30,780 nucleotides of DNA, taken from a virus (lineage: Duplodnaviria > Caudoviricetes). The stretch is taken from IMG/VR virus record IMGVR_UViG_3300011338_000680, positions 1-30,780 of that record, one strand, 5' to 3'. This document shows, piece by piece, positions 6,715 through 22,306 of this stretch; the first letter of the stretch is position 1; the number at the start of each line of letters is the position of its first letter. The notes beneath the pieces were generated by a model. That model was not told where the DNA came from, searched no databases, and worked only from the letters and a program-made list of their open reading frames with translations. The translations under genes were made by a program, and so were the position numbers.

Positions 6715-7661
6715 TTAGACCTGAGAGGCGTCAGACAGAACCGTAACCAGGTTCTCAGGACGGTACAGCTTGTAGCCGTAGCGGCACGTCGTGACGTACT
6801 CTTCGCGCTGGAGGTCCTTGTTATACTCGGAGTCAACCTTCGGGGCCTGGCGAACCGAACCGACGAACGGCAGAACATCAGGAGCAGCGGAGAAGAAGTA
6901 GTTAGCAACACCATTCGTCACCGAACGCGAGTTGACCGTCTCCGAGATCGAGCGAGGGAGGTTGACCGAGGTATAGACGTCAAAGCCATAGATGTTAGCA
7001 ATAAACTTCATACCCGTGCTCATACCATCACGCACGATACCTTCCCAACGCGGGTTGTTGGAGAGGTTCACGATGTTGGTCGTGGTAGCCAAAGCGTACT
7101 CAACCGAAGGATCAACAATCGCAACCAAATTGGTCATCGGGACGTTGGCCTTCTGGAGGGCATACTTGGCCTTAGCAAAGTCCTGGGGAACCATGACATT
7201 GTTGGTGCCAGCAGCCACCCAACGGTGGGCAGCCGAATTGATGTTGTTCAGATCAGAGGCAGTCTGACCAGCGTTGCCCAAGGCAAGCACATCAACTTCC
7301 ATCGCCTTAGCGATAGCACGATGCTGCTTCGGGCGAACGAACTAACAAGGCGGGACATATAGAATCTGTCCTGCTTCATCTTGTTCGTAATGTACGTAGC
7401 CGAGGACTTGTACTTGTTAATGGTGAACGTGAAGTTACCAGTATCCATCGCAGTGTAGCGAATTGCCTGACCTTCATCGTAGTCCAGCACTTCAGCCTGA
7501 CCGATAGACGGGATATTCAACGTATCGCCATCAGGGAAATCAGAGATCATGTCCACGTATTTCGTGGCAAAGAGCTCTTCGAGAAGAACCTCCTTGATCT
7601 GGGCAGACCAGAGGTTAGAACGAACGAGGTGTTCGTTGGTACCATAGCTAAAACCAGCCAT
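6715..7661 (-). CDS. Major capsid protein (about 315 aa), split by a 1-nt frameshift near 7333-7334
   Basis: ORFs 7248..7661 and 6715..7302 join as ...MSRLVSSF[x]PKQHRAIAKAMEVD... if one base is inserted (TTC G-C CCG). Motifs DFPDGDTLNIPSIG and C-terminal RYGYKLYRPENL. Follows scaffold, RBS AAGGA. Confidence 0.9.
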
Positions 7662-15947: not shown

Positions 15948-16544
15948 AGTATCTCTTTGGTAGGTAGGACTCTCTTCTCTTGGTGTATTACACCCAAAGA
16001 TACACCTTATTTCCCTATCTCATTGAAATTACTCATGTTACCTCTTATGCAATCTCCCAATAAAGACAACGAAGGATACGCCCTTACACTCTCTATAGTA
16101 AAATACATCCTTTGAAACATACCAAATATTGTATATCTAGAAGTATACCTTATAGGCGAATCCCTTCGCTTACGCTTCGGGAACGGGCTACTCATGAACA
16201 AAGCCTCTTTCAGAGTCTTTGCCCTTCGGGTGAGTATCCCTTTCGCATCCACCGGATAAATTGTTGATAACTACGTAGGCTGATCACCTCACACGCTCCA
16301 AGTGTAGTACGACATCACCGATCTTGCAGACTGCGGATGCATTGGGGTTAGTCATCTCATTACATATCATGGTGGTCTGCCTTTATTGTTGGAGGGTACC
16401 TACGCGTACTCACTCATCAAGTGGTGGGTCCTCGCCATGCTCGCTTCGCTGCGCGTGGCTCCGGTCCCGAGCTTCGCTCGCACTTGATTCGCTCCGTTCG
16501 CTCCGGTCCTTATCCTCCAACGGCAGACACCAACATAGATAAGT

Positions 16545-16756
16545 AAAGAGCTGCCGACTAAGCCCCAGCGATCAGCGGATTCTGCATTGGTGCAGCGGTA
16601 CGCAACCCGGATCGTGTGAGCTGACCAGCCTCTGGCGAAGTGATATTAGCTTCGCTAAGCTTGTTTTAAACTTATAAAATGCTAATGACCTTAGCCCACG
16701 TAAGACGATAGAGATCTAATCCTCTCGGCTGCTTGTCAGTTTGTCTTGGGCTCTTT
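16545..16756 (+). ncRNA. Candidate structured ncRNA (motif copy A)
   Basis: Closed by AAAGAGC/GCTCTTT. Internal stems CGATC/GATCG, CTGCA/TGCAG, GGT/ACC, TTAG/CTAA. Core shared with 18716-18820. Confidence 0.45.
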
Positions 16757-16969: not shown

Positions 16970-17121
16970 ACACACTCATCCAATACATGGACAGCGAGTT
17001 CCTCATGGGAATGCTCATCGCTGTCTTGGTAATAGGCTACAGCGTAGCTTGTTACCTCCACGGGAAGTCACATCGGCTTCCTATCACCACTCGCCGGAAA
17101 ACACCGCATATCAACATCTAA
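16966..17121 (+). CDS. Small early membrane protein, 51 aa
   Basis: Not in the ORF track. MNTLIQYMDSEFLMGMLIAVLVIGYSVACYLHGKSHRL..., one TM segment and a basic tail. Confidence 0.6.
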   Translation: MNTLIQYMDSEFLMGMLIAVLVIGYSVACYLHGKSHRLPITTRRKTPHINI

Positions 17122-17534: not shown

Positions 17535-18068
17535 ATGTCTACCAAGAACGTTCTCGCCAACTCGGCCTACTTCGCCTCTGCTCTTACTTCCATCGAGCCT
17601 CTCATCAACGCCCTGAACATGGACGTTGGAGAAGGCGATCAGGATACGGGTCACGAACGCCCAAGCCAGAAGGACATCGGCATCCGGATTATCCTCGGTG
17701 GTATCTGTCAGGTGATCCACAACCAACTTTATGGTGACTACACCACAAGCACTGGTTCCAAGGTTCCGAATGTCTACCGTCGCTTCATGGATTCGGAAGA
17801 ACAAGTCGGCTCCAAGGAATTCCAGGAACGAGCCGAAAATGGTGTACTCTCCAACGCCGACATGAAGGCGCTCGACTGGTACGCCAAGAACGAAGCTCGC
17901 TTCAACTGGCTCTCCGAAATGGACAACGTCTACAAGGAACTCTACCAGCAGGCAACCGGCGAAACCTGGAAGCCCTACGAACGCAAGGCGACCGAGTCCA
18001 AGCTCGACGACAAGCGTAAGGCACTTCTGGCTCGCATCAAGAGCGAGAAGGAAGTCGCTGCTGCCTAA
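17535..18068 (+). CDS. Early hypothetical protein, probably highly expressed
   Basis: RBS AAGGA. Strong C-ending/AAG codon bias like the capsid gene. 177 aa. Confidence 0.85.
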   Translation: MSTKNVLANSAYFASALTSIEPLINALNMDVGEGDQDTGHERPSQKDIGIRIILGGICQVIHNQLYGDYTTSTGSKVPNVYRRFMDSEEQVGSKEFQERAENGVLSNADMKALDWYAKNEARFNWLSEMDNVYKELYQQATGETWKPYERKATESKLDDKRKALLARIKSEKEVAAA

Positions 18069-18090: not shown

Positions 18091-18177
18091 GTGACCTGAG
18101 CAAGTCACGACACAAAAACTGCTCACCTAATTCAATTATGACCTGAGCAAGTCATGATTATCAATAAACTGCTCACC
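18091..18177 (+). repeat. Two tandem H-type pseudoknot repeats
   Basis: GTGAC-CTGAGCAA-GTCAC...AAACTGCTCACC and ATGAC-CTGAGCAA-GTCAT...AAACTGCTCACC. Loop TGAGCA is complementary to downstream TGCTCA. Confidence 0.8.
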
Positions 18178-18182
18178 CTTTT

Positions 18183-18256
18183 GGGAGCGTAGTCCAAGTA
18201 GAGACGGCTCGACAAGAGACGCAATGTGTTGGTATCAAATCCAACCGCTCCCACCA
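18183..18256 (+). tRNA. Atypical tRNA / tRNA-like RNA, anticodon not confidently assignable (possibly CAA)
   Basis: Acceptor stem GGGAGCG/CGCTCCC + A + CCA, D stem GTC/GAC, T stem GTTGG/CCAAC. T loop TATCAAAT (8 nt) and the anticodon arm are non-canonical. Confidence 0.7.
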
Positions 18257-18431
18257 AATTAGATAATACCGCTTGACGGCTTAGGCTAGCTACCCGTCAG
18301 GTAGTAAAAGACCAGGATACCGGAAGCGTCCTGGCGCTCTCATAAGGAGTCCAAACCACTTCCATCGTTTTTGACCAGGGAAGACTAGGGCAAACACCCT
18401 TCCTATCATAAACACCACATGAGACCTTCCT

Positions 18432-18704
18432 ATGCCATTCAAATCATGGATCTCAACACAAAACCCCAGAATCACAACCACAAATACTCCAATCGACCCT
18501 TGGGCACCAGGTAAAAAAATAAAATACAAAATTGCCGATTTAGGAATTGGAACAATAACAACTTTTGAAGATGCTAAAACAAAATGGGGACAAAGTATAG
18601 TAAATAACTACGGCGATGAAACAGTTTGGGCTTATTGGACCAATGCTAACGAAAGCCGTCCATTACAAACTCCCCGTAACCGTCTAATTCCCCTGCGCAC
18701 CTGA
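18432..18704 (+). CDS. Hypothetical protein
   Basis: 90-aa ATG ORF, A-rich codon usage like neighbouring genes. Its TGA stop lies in pseudoknot copy 3. Confidence 0.6.
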   Translation: MPFKSWISTQNPRITTTNTPIDPWAPGKKIKYKIADLGIGTITTFEDAKTKWGQSIVNNYGDETVWAYWTNANESRPLQTPRNRLIPLRT

Positions 18705-18838
18705 GCAAGTGCAAACAACTTAAGCTATAAACTAAGCCTAACTCCCGTTTGCGGCAAAGTACCACCCTCGGGTGAGAAACACCTATAGTACGGGTAAGAG
18801 CGACCATTGACGCTGAGTTGCAGAAAAAACTGCTCACC
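18697..18838 (+). ncRNA. Third pseudoknot copy with an inserted structured domain (motif copy B)
   Basis: GCAC-CTGAGCAA-GTGC (18697-18712) ... AAACTGCTCACC (18827-18838), enclosing a domain closed by CAACTTAAGC/GCTGAGTTG. Confidence 0.6.
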
Positions 18839-18874: not shown

Positions 18875-19615
18875 GTGAAGAAACTCGTCTCTAAAACCTC
18901 CTTTCCAATTTACGATACACAAATTCCTTGCAACATCCTCATGGGATGGGAATATGAAATCGACGATCCAAAAATACGCACTACCGATACATGGAATCGT
19001 CAAATAAATAGAATCAAAACTGCCTTTGGTCCTATAGGACACGAGCTCCAATTTCGTTGTGATGGTGGACATTACAATGAAAAAACAAGAATAATGACTC
19101 ACGGTATCGAAGTCTGCTCTCCAGTAGCACCACTCTTCCTATTGAAACATTGGGCTACACAACTCAAACCATTTACTGATAAAGCCAAACATCACAATGG
19201 CAACCACAACAACGGTGGCATCCACATCAATATCTCTAAAACAGCCTTCACAGCCAAACAATGGCCAAAAGTAAAAGAGTTTCTTCACAACACAAAGAAC
19301 TACCACCTTCTCTTTCAACTCTCTGATCGCCAGCAACAAAAATTCAACCTCAACGCCCCTCAAAATTTGATTACCTGTGAATTTAGCAAATACGGAATTA
19401 TTACAGCTACTAAGACCTACGCCTACGAACTCCGTATGTTCGGGGCTCACTCAAATACCTTCCTTCCAGCACTTGAATTTGCTGATGCTCTCTTCCGATT
19501 TGCAGCCACTGTCAAAATAATCACCCCAGACGGCTTCTTCACCTGGGTAGATCAACACAAAAAGTACCAAATCCTTTCAGCCTATATCCATCAGAAGTTG
19601 GCCGATACCAAATGA
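18875..19615 (+). CDS. Amidoligase (glutamine synthetase-like COOH-NH2 ligase)
   Basis: Ordered motifs GWEYEI, CDGG, GIEVCSP, GGIHINIS, YELRMF. Confidence 0.8.
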   Translation: MKKLVSKTSFPIYDTQIPCNILMGWEYEIDDPKIRTTDTWNRQINRIKTAFGPIGHELQFRCDGGHYNEKTRIMTHGIEVCSPVAPLFLLKHWATQLKPFTDKAKHHNGNHNNGGIHINISKTAFTAKQWPKVKEFLHNTKNYHLLFQLSDRQQQKFNLNAPQNLITCEFSKYGIITATKTYAYELRMFGAHSNTFLPALEFADALFRFAATVKIITPDGFFTWVDQHKKYQILSAYIHQKLADTK

Positions 19616-20571
19616 CCTTTCGATTCATCATCAGGCCAGCATCGATTCGTACCACTCCCCGTCTGCTCAAAGAAGCCCTGGGAGCTGAACGAACTCTTCG
19701 TTGGCCTGGCCCGTCTAGAGTAAAACCCAGTTACCAAAAAGATTTCTTCCTTACTTATCCACCAATCGAAGAGCTAGAAGAATATGCCCAGAGTTTTGGT
19801 TCAAATGCCCGATGGAATGGAAGTAATACGCGGAGTGTACTCCGAGAGGGACATTCAAACCTTCCTCAATGCTCATTGGATAGTTACGCCTCTGCCCGAA
19901 CCTTCGCCAGCTCCACCAAACCCCTACAGAGACGTATACTCGCAGACTCAGGGTACCCAATACCCTGGACCTCAACAGTCCGCCGCAACATCACCTCAAT
20001 GGACGGACAGCAGACTTCTCAATCCTTTGGTAATCCCCGATATCCCTCTACCCCAGGGTTTATACTGGGCATGGAACAGCCACAACAATCGGTGGAACCA
20101 AATGATGTCGGCTCCTACATCGTCAGGCCCCTCAGGCACACAAGAGGTCAGGGCTGGCGTCTCACCAGCTCTCCGACAGACTTTGAAGAGGGACGGGAAT
20201 ACATTCAAGAAATTTATCCAAAAAACCATGAATACCGGGTAATCGCTGTTCGTGGTATGCCCTTAGTCACACTCTACAAGCGACGACCTGAAGGAACCCC
20301 TCACGATCAACCTTGGAACCACACCAATGGATCTTCGTTTGTTACTGTTTCTAATCCCGATAATGATCGTCTACGATACACTGACGTATACGAGAAAATA
20401 AAATCCACTGATCTCTTCAAGAGTCTAGATCTTATCGGTCTCGACATAATGATTGCAAGTCGTGGTCAATACGTAGTTACCGAAGTCAACTTGTGCCCTG
20501 CAGTGACACTAGAACACAATCTCCAAAGGATCAAAGCTCATGTCGATTCTGATTCGTTCGTCTCTCGATAG
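19612..20571 (+). CDS. ATP-grasp peptide ligase-like protein
   Basis: K..QR..L...G.PIPWT, IVRPLRHTRGQG, EYIQE, EYRV, WNH.NG, IGLDIM, VTEVNLCP. ATGA-coupled to the upstream gene. Confidence 0.8.
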   Translation: MTFRFIIRPASIRTTPRLLKEALGAERTLRWPGPSRVKPSYQKDFFLTYPPIEELEEYAQSFGSNARWNGSNTRSVLREGHSNLPQCSLDSYASARTFASSTKPLQRRILADSGYPIPWTSTVRRNITSMDGQQTSQSFGNPRYPSTPGFILGMEQPQQSVEPNDVGSYIVRPLRHTRGQGWRLTSSPTDFEEGREYIQEIYPKNHEYRVIAVRGMPLVTLYKRRPEGTPHDQPWNHTNGSSFVTVSNPDNDRLRYTDVYEKIKSTDLFKSLDLIGLDIMIASRGQYVVTEVNLCPAVTLEHNLQRIKAHVDSDSFVSR

Positions 20572-22306
20572 CTCCGAATACGTTTCTCTTCCTAATCTTA
20601 TTGATGTATTCAATCCAACCAAGCATCGTTGCTGGAACAATGGGTTTACTGTTAATCGTGTCACCGCTGGACAGTGGCGGTCCATCATGCAGTGTTTTTG
20701 GACCAGAGAAAACATCAACAATATGGACGAGTTTTATCGTCCAGTAGTTTTTGATTCATTGCTAATAACTCCTAGCACTGAACTTGTCACGATTATTTCT
20801 GAAACAGTTCGGCTTCTACCTGACGATGCCCTGTGGTTCTTTAACTTCTGTAAAGTCACTCGACGTGGTGGAAATTGCCGACTGGAGACGATTAATTGGT
20901 CTAACTTTAGCCATGACAACCAATTCTCATTTGGTTGGGACATAGTTACTTCAAACCACTCAAACGCTACAGACCTCGCGGCCAAAATTTTGGAAACCGC
21001 AAACCACTTTAATACCTTTGTTAACCAAAACCAAGATAAACGGTGTTACGACTGGCTCAGGAGCGTGTTCAACTGTGCAAACCTCTTTTTTACAATGTGT
21101 ACTGGTGGCGAATACGCCAACAGCAATCGAGAAAGATATAACGCAGAGAATCTGCGTAGAGAATTGCTAGTTAATACTGAAGCAACACTTTCTTTCAATC
21201 GTAATTTAAGCTCACTAACTGTTACAATTCCAATCACCTACGCAAATCGTAACCAACTTTACAGTATTTTTCCGTACTCTACCGACATCACTACCATGAT
21301 TCCCGGCAAGAAGAAGTTGCCAACCGAAGGCACCCCGATTCATGTAGGTGTAGAACTGGAAGTATCTACCGATTACGATGTAGCTCACTTGATTGATGCT
21401 TCCGCAGAACTCTTCTTCATTGCTAAACAGGACTCGTCTATCACTGGCAAGAAACTAAACCGTATGGAACTGGTTACAGTTCCAGCATCGTTTAAATACC
21501 TAAAGAAACAATACGCTCACTGGTTTAACAATCTTGATTATCGTAATTTCGACTGTACTACTGAAACCAATAATGGAATGCACGTCCACATCGATAGGCT
21601 CGCATTTGATGACGACTACCATATCCGTAACTTCTGCTGGTTCATCAATAATCCTGCGAATACTCCATTCATTGTAGCCATGTCTGACCGTGGTTCTCTG
21701 GAGGCTATGAGGAACTACACACCCTTCCTTCAGTTTCCCAATAACAGCTCCAGAACTACAGCTTTCAAAAGCTGCCACAGGCTACTAGATGGGCATCGTG
21801 GAGCTACCAATCTCAAAAACGGATGGGCAAACGCCAAGACGGTAGAGGTTCGTATCTTCCGAGGCATCGTCAGCTACGCTGCCATTGTCAAAAATCTGGA
21901 ATTCGTCGAGTCTTTGTTTCACTTCACTCAGAGCTTGCGCAGCTACCGTGAACTGTCTCTTGGTTACTACATCAAATGGCTGTTCAACACTCCTCCCAAC
22001 AAGTACTCAATTCTGAAGAAGTTCATCCAGAGTCATGACCTTGATCGATTCCTGCTTGTTGCAGACATCAAGGATCTCATCTTTAACGAAACCGACCCTG
22101 AAAAAATCGCAAAGATTTTGATGGGGAGTAAGCTTCATATCACTAACGACCATATCACCTATCTAAACCGTGGTCGTAAACGTACCTTCACCCTGAATAA
22201 GGACACAGGCCAGATCAATGTAATCAAGACTAATATCTTTAAACTCGCTGACCTTGACATTGACTTGGCCAAACGCATCAGCGGCAACGTAACACGAGCC
22301 GCTTAA
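20540..22306 (+). CDS. Second amidoligase with a long N-terminal extension
   Basis: C-terminal half has VGVELEV, KQDSSI, MELVTVP, NNGMHVHI and TVEVRIFRG. Confidence 0.85.
   Translation: MSILIRSSLDSSEYVSLPNLIDVFNPTKHRCWNNGFTVNRVTAGQWRSIMQCFWTRENINNMDEFYRPVVFDSLLITPSTELVTIISETVRLLPDDALWFFNFCKVTRRGGNCRLETINWSNFSHDNQFSFGWDIVTSNHSNATDLAAKILETANHFNTFVNQNQDKRCYDWLRSVFNCANLFFTMCTGGEYANSNRERYNAENLRRELLVNTEATLSFNRNLSSLTVTIPITYANRNQLYSIFPYSTDITTMIPGKKKLPTEGTPIHVGVELEVSTDYDVAHLIDASAELFFIAKQDSSITGKKLNRMELVTVPASFKYLKKQYAHWFNNLDYRNFDCTTETNNGMHVHIDRLAFDDDYHIRNFCWFINNPANTPFIVAMSDRGSLEAMRNYTPFLQFPNNSSRTTAFKSCHRLLDGHRGATNLKNGWANAKTVEVRIFRGIVSYAAIVKNLEFVESLFHFTQSLRSYRELSLGYYIKWLFNTPPNKYSILKKFIQSHDLDRFLLVADIKDLIFNETDPEKIAKILMGSKLHITNDHITYLNRGRKRTFTLNKDTGQINVIKTNIFKLADLDIDLAKRISGNVTRAA

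Follow-up and report, generated by a model that had tools for sequence, protein, structure and literature searches.

A widespread family of predicted phage RNA pseudoknots with a clear position relative to stop codons

Three short repeats in the early region of a phage genome belong to a real and very widespread family of phage RNA pseudoknots, whose fold is predicted, whose placement follows a clear positional rule and for which we found no match in existing catalogues. The pseudoknot is not special to the phage in which it was noticed, a 30.8-kb linear virus record (the whole stretch of 30,780 nucleotides analysed is called the window below). Covariation, G-U usage, strand and spacing support an H-type pseudoknot that acts as RNA and has a modular loop insert. 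As to its role, we give roughly even chances to the explanation that the pseudoknot is a barrier at the 3' end of the RNA upstream of it, or a processing boundary for this RNA.

Three copies in the early region of the window

The terminase of the window shares 67% identity with the one from Celeribacter phage P12053L, Lentibacter and Roseobacter phages being comparably close, and on this similarity we take the phage to be cobavirus-like; a blastn search of the whole region against cultured phages returned nothing useful. Structural genes run leftward and early and replication genes rightward from about 16.9 kb, with the pseudoknot cluster in the early part. Two overlapping minus-strand ORFs (7248-7661 and 6715-7302, spanning 6715-7661) both match PHROG 267, the major head protein, a split that suggests either a frameshift or a fault of assembly. 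A long imperfect inverted repeat (16277-16355 with 16555-16631), a candidate RNase III-type stalk, lies in the non-coding gap that separates the two genome arms. The motif CTTCCTATCA, possibly a promoter element, recurs 5' of early ORFs at 17077, 18399 and 24588, and also in the relatives L103, L488 and L489; its five matches with one mismatch allowed, against 2.1 expected, are alone not significant.

The three copies have only their head and tail in common. Each has a stem, P1, enclosing the 8-nt loop CTGAGCAA (beginning at 18096, 18143 and 18701) and, further 3', the tail AAACTGCTCA (beginning at 18116, 18166 and 18827), in which AAAC is followed by the 3' strand of a second helix, P2, complementary to the loop. 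The P1 stems of copies 1, 2 and 3 are GTGAC/GTCAC, ATGAC/GTCAT and GCAC/GTGC. Copy 1 (18091..18125, plus strand) has P1 at 18091-95/18104-08, the loop at 18096-103, AAAC at 18116-19 and the P2 3' strand at 18120-25. In copy 2 (18134..18175, plus strand) P1 can be extended to at most 9 bp (18134-18159), the loop occupies 18143-50, AAAC 18166-69 and the P2 3' strand 18170-75. Copy 3 (18697..18836, plus strand) has P1 at 18697-700/18709-12, the loop at 18701-08, AAAC at 18827-30 and the P2 3' strand at 18831-36. The linkers ahead of AAAC measure 7, 10 and 114 nt; the earlier note was right that they are short in copies 1 and 2 and long in copy 3, where its figure of roughly 105 nt has to be revised.

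A descriptor made of a stem of at least 4 bp, an 8-nt loop, AAAC and a loop-complementary tail matches the window three times and has no match in any of 100 shuffles, which confirms the three copies first noticed by inspection. A covariance model run over the window recovers the same copies (E 1.4e-5 for copy 1 and 1.9e-6 for copy 2) and no further credible one, and Rfam, at E 1, has no match in the window for the pseudoknot copies or the insert. Within the window P1 alone varies, and the covariation of P2 comes from homologues.

The copies had been described as lying just after ORF stops, just before a tRNA-like gene and just before an amidoligase operon, a description that stands in part. 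Copy 1 starts 22 nt past the stop of a 177-aa ORF (17535..18068, plus strand), the stop that precedes the cluster; this ORF has no Pfam, PHROG, PADLOC or NCBIfam match, and none of its eight homologues has a Pfam domain. Copy 2 lies just before the tRNA-like element, ending 7 nt 5' of it. Copy 3 contains the stop: the TGA of its loop doubles as the stop codon of a 90-aa ORF (18432..18704, plus strand); the corresponding stop in two relatives, L103 and L488, precedes P1 by 9 nt. The ORF that comes first downstream of copy 3 (18875..19615, plus strand, 246 aa) has no family match in Pfam, PHROG, PADLOC or NCBIfam, and holds short motifs, spotted by eye, that we take to be amidoligase-like. The amidoligase label itself goes back to a weak Pfam match of ORF 20540-22306 (E 4e-4, below the cut-off).

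The tRNA-like element (18183..18256, plus strand) ends in CCA and has a cloverleaf-like predicted fold with an abnormal anticodon arm, a 5-nt anticodon loop and an 8-nt T-loop; both ARAGORN and Rfam miss it. It is kept in the relative L488 (562-635), with a compensatory change in the acceptor stem and likewise directly after a pseudoknot copy, and is absent from the equivalent site in L103. It is a possible tRNA mimic or RNase P substrate. On its 3' side, positions 18262-18395 are hairpin-rich (folding z -1.59) with a possible loop-tail pairing; this stretch is missing from L103 and L488, both of which carry another pseudoknot copy there.

Predicted fold and spread of the family

The window copies are members of a sequence family of about 30 nt, whose commonest form takes only about 28 nt. 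The fold that we infer has a P1 of 4-5 bp, a loop 1 of 1-2 nt, a P2 of 5-6 bp, one unpaired base and AAAC within loop 3. A relaxed search pattern, in which four P2 positions are partly free, gave 124 matches, with six P2 positions paired in 55, five in 42, four in 17 and three or fewer in 10. We aligned the 70 matches with the shortest linker, near-duplicates having been removed by eye. The named pseudoknot is paired in 94.7% of cells, against 83.6% in shuffles, and has 87 cells with double-sided changes, against 29.9; none of 500 shuffles reaches either observed value, and slid controls pair at 22-39%. Double changes occur in two of the four P1 pairs and in four of the six P2 pairs, the other four of the ten pairs being fixed by the search pattern and therefore uninformative. 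The P2 pair 9-27 has 20 double changes and is unpaired in none of the 70 sequences. The family thus has the two crossing helices of an H-type pseudoknot, each with compensatory changes; the earlier note had considered that loop and 3' segment might fail to covary in homologues, and they do covary.

In P2 there are 26 G-U and 8 A-C cells, an excess that singles out the motif strand and favours RNA. A descriptor scan of the loci, which also captures unsearched neighbours, gave 232 copies, 27 of which have a broken first P2 pair; the U is required and the base before the P1 3' strand varies, so loop 1 may be CU. The near-invariant C, U and AAAC are largely fixed by the search patterns. The family resembles luteoviral frameshift pseudoknots in its C loop of one base and in an A-rich loop that ends in AAAC, and by this likeness we would expect base triples at loop 1 and minor-groove contacts of AAAC. 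The compact H-type fold with coaxial stems is shared with these and with the gene 32 pseudoknots of T2 and T4, as described in part of PMC3014915. In contrast, the gene 32 pseudoknot serves as a 5' operator and lies 67 nt ahead of its start codon, whereas the family has no fixed distance to a start and no open recoding frame.

The exact pattern (linker of 8-35 nt) is found in 102 IMG/VR stretches, about nine of which lack the stem by eye, and the relaxed pattern in 121 stretches from 4 of the 64 IMG/VR parts, which leads to an estimate of about 2,000 overall. In GTDB, 125 stretches came from 53 of 64 parts, with titles including Bacillota, Bacteroidota, Cyanobacteria, Proteobacteria, Patescibacteria and others. 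These hits passed a crude 70% flank filter alone and are not phylogenetically independent. A reversed-order pattern returned mostly coding noise. Cultured carriers include Arthrobacter phage Amigo, Mycobacterium phage Labelle, Paracoccus phage ParMal1, the cyanophages S-RIM4, S-EIVl and Ma-LMM01, and phages of Lactobacillus, Bacillus and Staphylococcus.

Rfam has no match among 60 family loci (E 5 in 20 short loci), a result to be read with the facts that covariance models ignore pseudoknots and that the element is short. We found no published description of the pseudoknot family: there is none in passages of PMC5737381 and PMC10085705, and motif string searches had no match in supplements to PMC2864571 or in three of the six supplement files of PMC10690425. 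The motif may sit in the candidate lists of Weinberg 2017 or Fremin 2023.

One candidate was STAXI (RF01728), given in part of PMC2864571 as a simple repeated pseudoknot near ssb and antirestriction genes. Both are simple, repeated pseudoknots with such neighbours, but their sequences differ and STAXI is listed for Enterobacteriales only. We rejected this assignment, as the consensus differs and the STAXI model finds nothing in the window genome at E 10. The resemblance of context also recalls the structure in single-stranded DNA once proposed for STAXI. For our family such a DNA structure is barely credible, given the G-U strand bias, the strict sense orientation and the spacing set by stops, and the same observations largely refute the suggestion, raised in the earlier note as one that would tell against an RNA role, that the element works as a DNA site.

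The motif was also found in a type III-A CRISPR array of the genome G001 (C1:1029054-1038700; L358-L359), where five of 140 spacers contain loop and tail and many other spacers are hairpins. The crRNA would pair with the motif strand in all five, the direction of the repeats being inferred. A passage of PMC8860593 reports that type III-A systems prefer hairpin-forming DNA. Given this preference, and since the genome has no RT match, these spacers are not evidence of abundant RNA.

Placement relative to stops, starts and tRNAs

The placement of the copies was analysed with ORFs defined as simple open frames rather than as predicted genes. For the 153 non-redundant hits that have sufficient flanking sequence, the ORF on the upstream side shares the strand of the copy in 112 cases and lies on the other strand in 13; on the downstream side the numbers are 112 and 12. 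In each of 52 multi-copy loci, a set that includes relatives, all copies are on one strand. The loop starts 8-15 nt past the stop in 57 of 127 hits and 2-7 nt past it in none (34 further hits, outside the 127, have no ORF stop within 120 nt). The 8-15 nt class comprises 11 of 17 hits in Bacillota, 25 of 41 in other bacteria and 21 of 69 in viral records, with none at 2-7 nt in any group, and a looser descriptor places only 1 of 167 at 2-7 nt. Distances set in abruptly at 8 and peak at 10, against a flat opposite-strand control. With a 4-bp stem, P1 starts about 4-8 nt after the stop. A ribosome with a stop codon in its A site has its unwinding site near message position +11; the gap between stop and P1 is about the edge of such a terminating ribosome and matches this site. 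In 7 of 161 copies the open frame ends at the loop's own TGA, as in copy 3 of the window. These cases speak against a barrier, as the ribosome would melt P1.

Such spacing could also mean that the pseudoknot works from the mRNA entry channel to influence the terminating ribosome, with effects on termination, recycling, re-initiation or stalling, in the manner of REP hairpins within 15 nt of a stop. The narrow peak in loop position, 9-11 nt past the stop, points that way, and part of PMC12306157 reports that REPs at most 15 nt from a stop stall ribosomes. We nevertheless find an action on the ribosome unlikely, because 70 of the 127 hits lie more than 15 nt from the stop and many copies sit in tRNA clusters or arrays with no nearby stop. 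The spacing would suit recoding by readthrough or frameshift as well, but TAA is the stop in 42 of 62 close cases and most frames close within a few dozen codons at most, and on these grounds we rejected it; no slippery heptamer is evident by eye upstream of the knots.

The anchor is the stop, not the following start. In long gaps (n=51), 23 copies are near the upstream stop against 8.2 expected, 4 near the downstream start against 12.9 expected, and 24 near neither. This preference weighs against a roadblock that would stop RNase J in the 5'-to-3' direction and protect the downstream message, as the xrRNAs of plant viruses and flaviviruses do; so do the frequent placement of copies 5' of the next promoter-like site or tRNA and their abundance in records of Bacteroidota and gammaproteobacteria, groups that are not known to have RNase J. 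In its favour, copies in temperate phages of Bacillota are often directly 5' of scaffold and capsid genes, where protection of downstream RNA would make more sense than a barrier for the RNA upstream, and RNase J and 5' roadblocks are established in Bacillota (part of PMC3997798). Overall, we regard this roadblock as highly improbable. Family matches of 97 flanking ORFs (drawn from 70 upstream and the first 75 of 83 downstream candidates, with duplicates and close relatives removed) comprise scaffold in 6, DUF932 in 3, ArdA in 2, minor head in 2, ArdC, Hsp20 and a few others.

Sequences just past the knot are peculiar. The first 7 nt after P2 contain 6% G, against 22% overall, and a U-rich run directly follows P2 in 33 of 253 copies, against 5 of 253 forty bases on. 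Some early regions have the order ORF, knot, promoter-like site, ORF; overall, promoter-like sites are weakly enriched after the knot (13 of 211; controls 5, 9 and 4). For many copies the next start follows at a distance of 16-40 nt. The U-rich runs and the location at gene ends, sometimes before promoter-like sites, might indicate a transcription pause or partial terminator, with P2 forming on nascent RNA as a terminator stem, with or without a U-tract. Yet 220 of 253 copies have no U-tract, a distance of 16-40 nt to the next start leaves no space for a promoter, and Bacillota, in which a terminator may overlap a stop, also keep the gap between stop and knot. A pause or partial terminator is thus, in our view, unlikely, and an obligatory terminator does not fit the scarcity of U-tracts (33 of 253) and the many copies 16-40 nt before a start. 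In the window, no terminator-like site was scored after any of the three copies.

Several copies precede tRNAs. A tRNA begins 1-21 nt 3' of the end of the copy in 12 of 253 cases, and the copy follows a tRNA in one; in phage Amigo, the ssb stop is followed by the knot and then by tRNA-Gly. In the crAss phage cr7_1 (L361, 773-1129) a permuted tmRNA gene has a copy within its intervening segment, with 2 nt between the end of the copy and the predicted mature 5' end. The arrangement ahead of tRNAs is reminiscent of MALAT1 and MEN-beta, in which a triple helix is followed by the tRNA-like mascRNA and RNase P would make the guarded 3' end: in both cases a compact multi-helix element may stand directly 5' of a tRNA or tRNA-like unit. 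Unlike our family, the MALAT1/MEN-beta element is eukaryotic, has a U-A-U triple helix and is much larger; there is no sequence relation, and most family copies have no adjacent tRNA.

Adjacency to tRNAs also raises the question of whether the knot makes the cut itself, as a self-cleaving ribozyme, or marks it as a recognition signal for an endonuclease such as RNase P, E or Y. The end of the cr7_1 copy, 2 nt short of the mature 5' end of the tmRNA, and the high conservation of single-stranded positions would fit a ribozyme or cut signal. On the other hand, about 28 nt is far below the size of known natural ribozymes, the spacing ahead of tRNA 5' ends ranges between 1 and 21 nt, and there is no Rfam ribozyme match in the 60 loci scanned, so we judge this possibility distinctly unlikely. 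Small ribozymes do occur at intergenic and tRNA-adjacent sites of phages, such as the theta (minimal HDV-like) ribozymes, which part of bioRxiv 2023.06.13.544163 describes as double pseudoknots that have a catalytic C and lie at tRNA 3' ends. Theta ribozymes are, like our family, small phage pseudoknot RNAs beside tRNA genes, but the family has a single knot and is at tRNA 5' ends (12 against 1). Among known self-cleaving ribozymes (hammerhead, twister, pistol, HDV/theta, hairpin and hatchet), Rfam matched none to the element or the insert, and a comparison with their cores by eye gave no likeness either.

The earlier note had proposed three roles for the RNA, as nuclease roadblock, processing signal or decoy, and had drawn an analogy with type III antitoxins. 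A roadblock or processing boundary fits the positions best, while the decoy and the antitoxin analogy are unsupported. Like the family, type III antitoxin RNAs (ToxI, CptI, TenpI) and phage pseudo-ToxI are small H-type pseudoknots of phage intergenic DNA that can occur in tandem. Their layout, as set out in part of PMC3401426, is one of tandem near-identical repeats of 34-57 nt, a terminator and a toxin gene, whereas in the family identical repeats do not follow one another head to tail, the layout of terminator and toxin gene is missing, Rfam gives no antitoxin match (at E 1 for the window and at E 5 for 20 short loci) and no toxin gene is adjacent. Only 3-4 of 45 distinct contexts hold true tandem junctions, arrays have different inserts, and no ToxN, CptN or TenpN family is among the 97 flanking ORFs or seven window proteins; a free-standing mimic would not need terminator or toxin. 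A decoy or ligand for a protein (a type III antitoxin mimic, or a site for ribosomal protein S1), released as a small stable RNA, might find favour in the arrays of 2-4 units with different loop-3 hairpins at an orthologous early locus, in the early neighbours, including ArdA, ArdC and DUF932 genes, and in the known mimicry of ToxI by a phage (part of PMC3475682). Still, most copies are single and anchored to stops, and one consensus extends over many phyla whereas ToxI sequences vary greatly with the toxin (part of PMC3401426), which makes a decoy very unlikely.

A 3'-end barrier or processing boundary would account for these placements as follows. The knot would have to stay folded on a translated message and would be placed as near the stop as the terminating ribosome allows. 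Cleavage by RNase P, whose established role is to cut at tRNA 5' ends, at a following tRNA, by an endonuclease in the G-poor tail, or else termination, would create the downstream end. Exonucleases acting 3' to 5' would then trim the G-poor tail and halt at P2. The anchoring to stops, the position before tRNA 5' ends and sometimes before the next promoter-like site indicate that the element belongs to the RNA upstream, and structured 3' ends resist 3' exonucleases (part of PMC3997798). In one freshwater RNA run, searched with L021, contigs span the upstream ORF and the knot and two continue 131 nt past it; their depth is greatest at the 3' end of the ORF, which is also its most conserved part, and contig depth cannot rank positions. 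Other observations argue against a barrier: the tmRNA segment that contains the cr7_1 copy is presumably discarded, and a plain hairpin would serve equally, which leaves the near-invariant C, U and AAAC unaccounted for.

The barrier would have a counterpart in the REP and intercistronic 3' stem-loops of enterobacteria, short structured elements just past stops that are tied to mRNA stability and, within 15 nt, to ribosome stalling (part of PMC12306157). The family shares their location 3' of stops on the coding strand. In contrast to REPs, palindromes in hundreds of chromosomal copies, its members are phage-borne pseudoknots in strictly one orientation, with 1-3 copies in each of the five bacterial genomes tested (150 candidates scored in each).

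Inserts in loop 3 and implications

In copy 3, a domain of 114 nt (18713..18826, plus strand) is inserted in loop 3. The split form recurs at the same site, with a homologous insert, in three relatives (L103, L376/L490 and L488), and other relatives have different hairpins in the same loop and clusters of 3-4 units with differing inserts at the early site. Loop 3 is thus a real insertion point. Folded alone, the insert has no significant structure (z -0.68); a UUCG-capped hairpin within it covaries between L103 and L488, and the four-sequence consensus is dominated by three close relatives. The cores of hammerhead, hairpin, twister and pistol ribozymes, compared by eye, do not fit the insert. 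Among 15 long-linker hits, only two, both of the window lineage, are clear long-loop forms, nine are tandem short copies and four, doubtful or mixed, have no short tail; shorter hairpin inserts in loop 3 were seen in six of eight hits of another search. At the orthologous early site, L489 (G004:C1:330-640, minus strand) has four units, of which three carry loop-3 hairpins that differ from one another; its contig ends in a tmRNA-like T-arm. In L368, L375, L369, L372 and L367, pairs or trios of knots flank other structured domains of 60-100 nt, and some variants expand loop 2, not loop 3.

In the lineage of the window phage, where loop 3 holds inserted domains, a single knot would thereby grip a cargo RNA at its two ends. 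On the boldest reading, the linkers between units would be cut and each knot would hold both ends of its own cargo. We can therefore put forward, tentatively and as a proposal with clearly less than even chances, a two-part picture: across phyla, the minimal pseudoknot would set and protect RNA 3' ends, placed by the footprint of the terminating ribosome; in one cobavirus-like lineage, it would have become a natural clasp locking both ends of exchangeable cargo RNAs (hairpins and the 114-nt domain) in early-expressed arrays beside a tRNA mimic.

The control of the life span of single cistrons within the long early and late transcripts of phages is poorly known. The family would be among the most widespread uncatalogued RNA motifs of phages, found in phages of Bacillota, Actinomycetota, Cyanobacteria, Bacteroidota and Proteobacteria and in Patescibacteria genomes. 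The spacing rule predicts that copies moved to less than about 4 nt from the stop would fail. At about 30 nt, the pseudoknot is easy to probe, mutate and solve, and might serve as a compact RNA stabiliser or scaffold.
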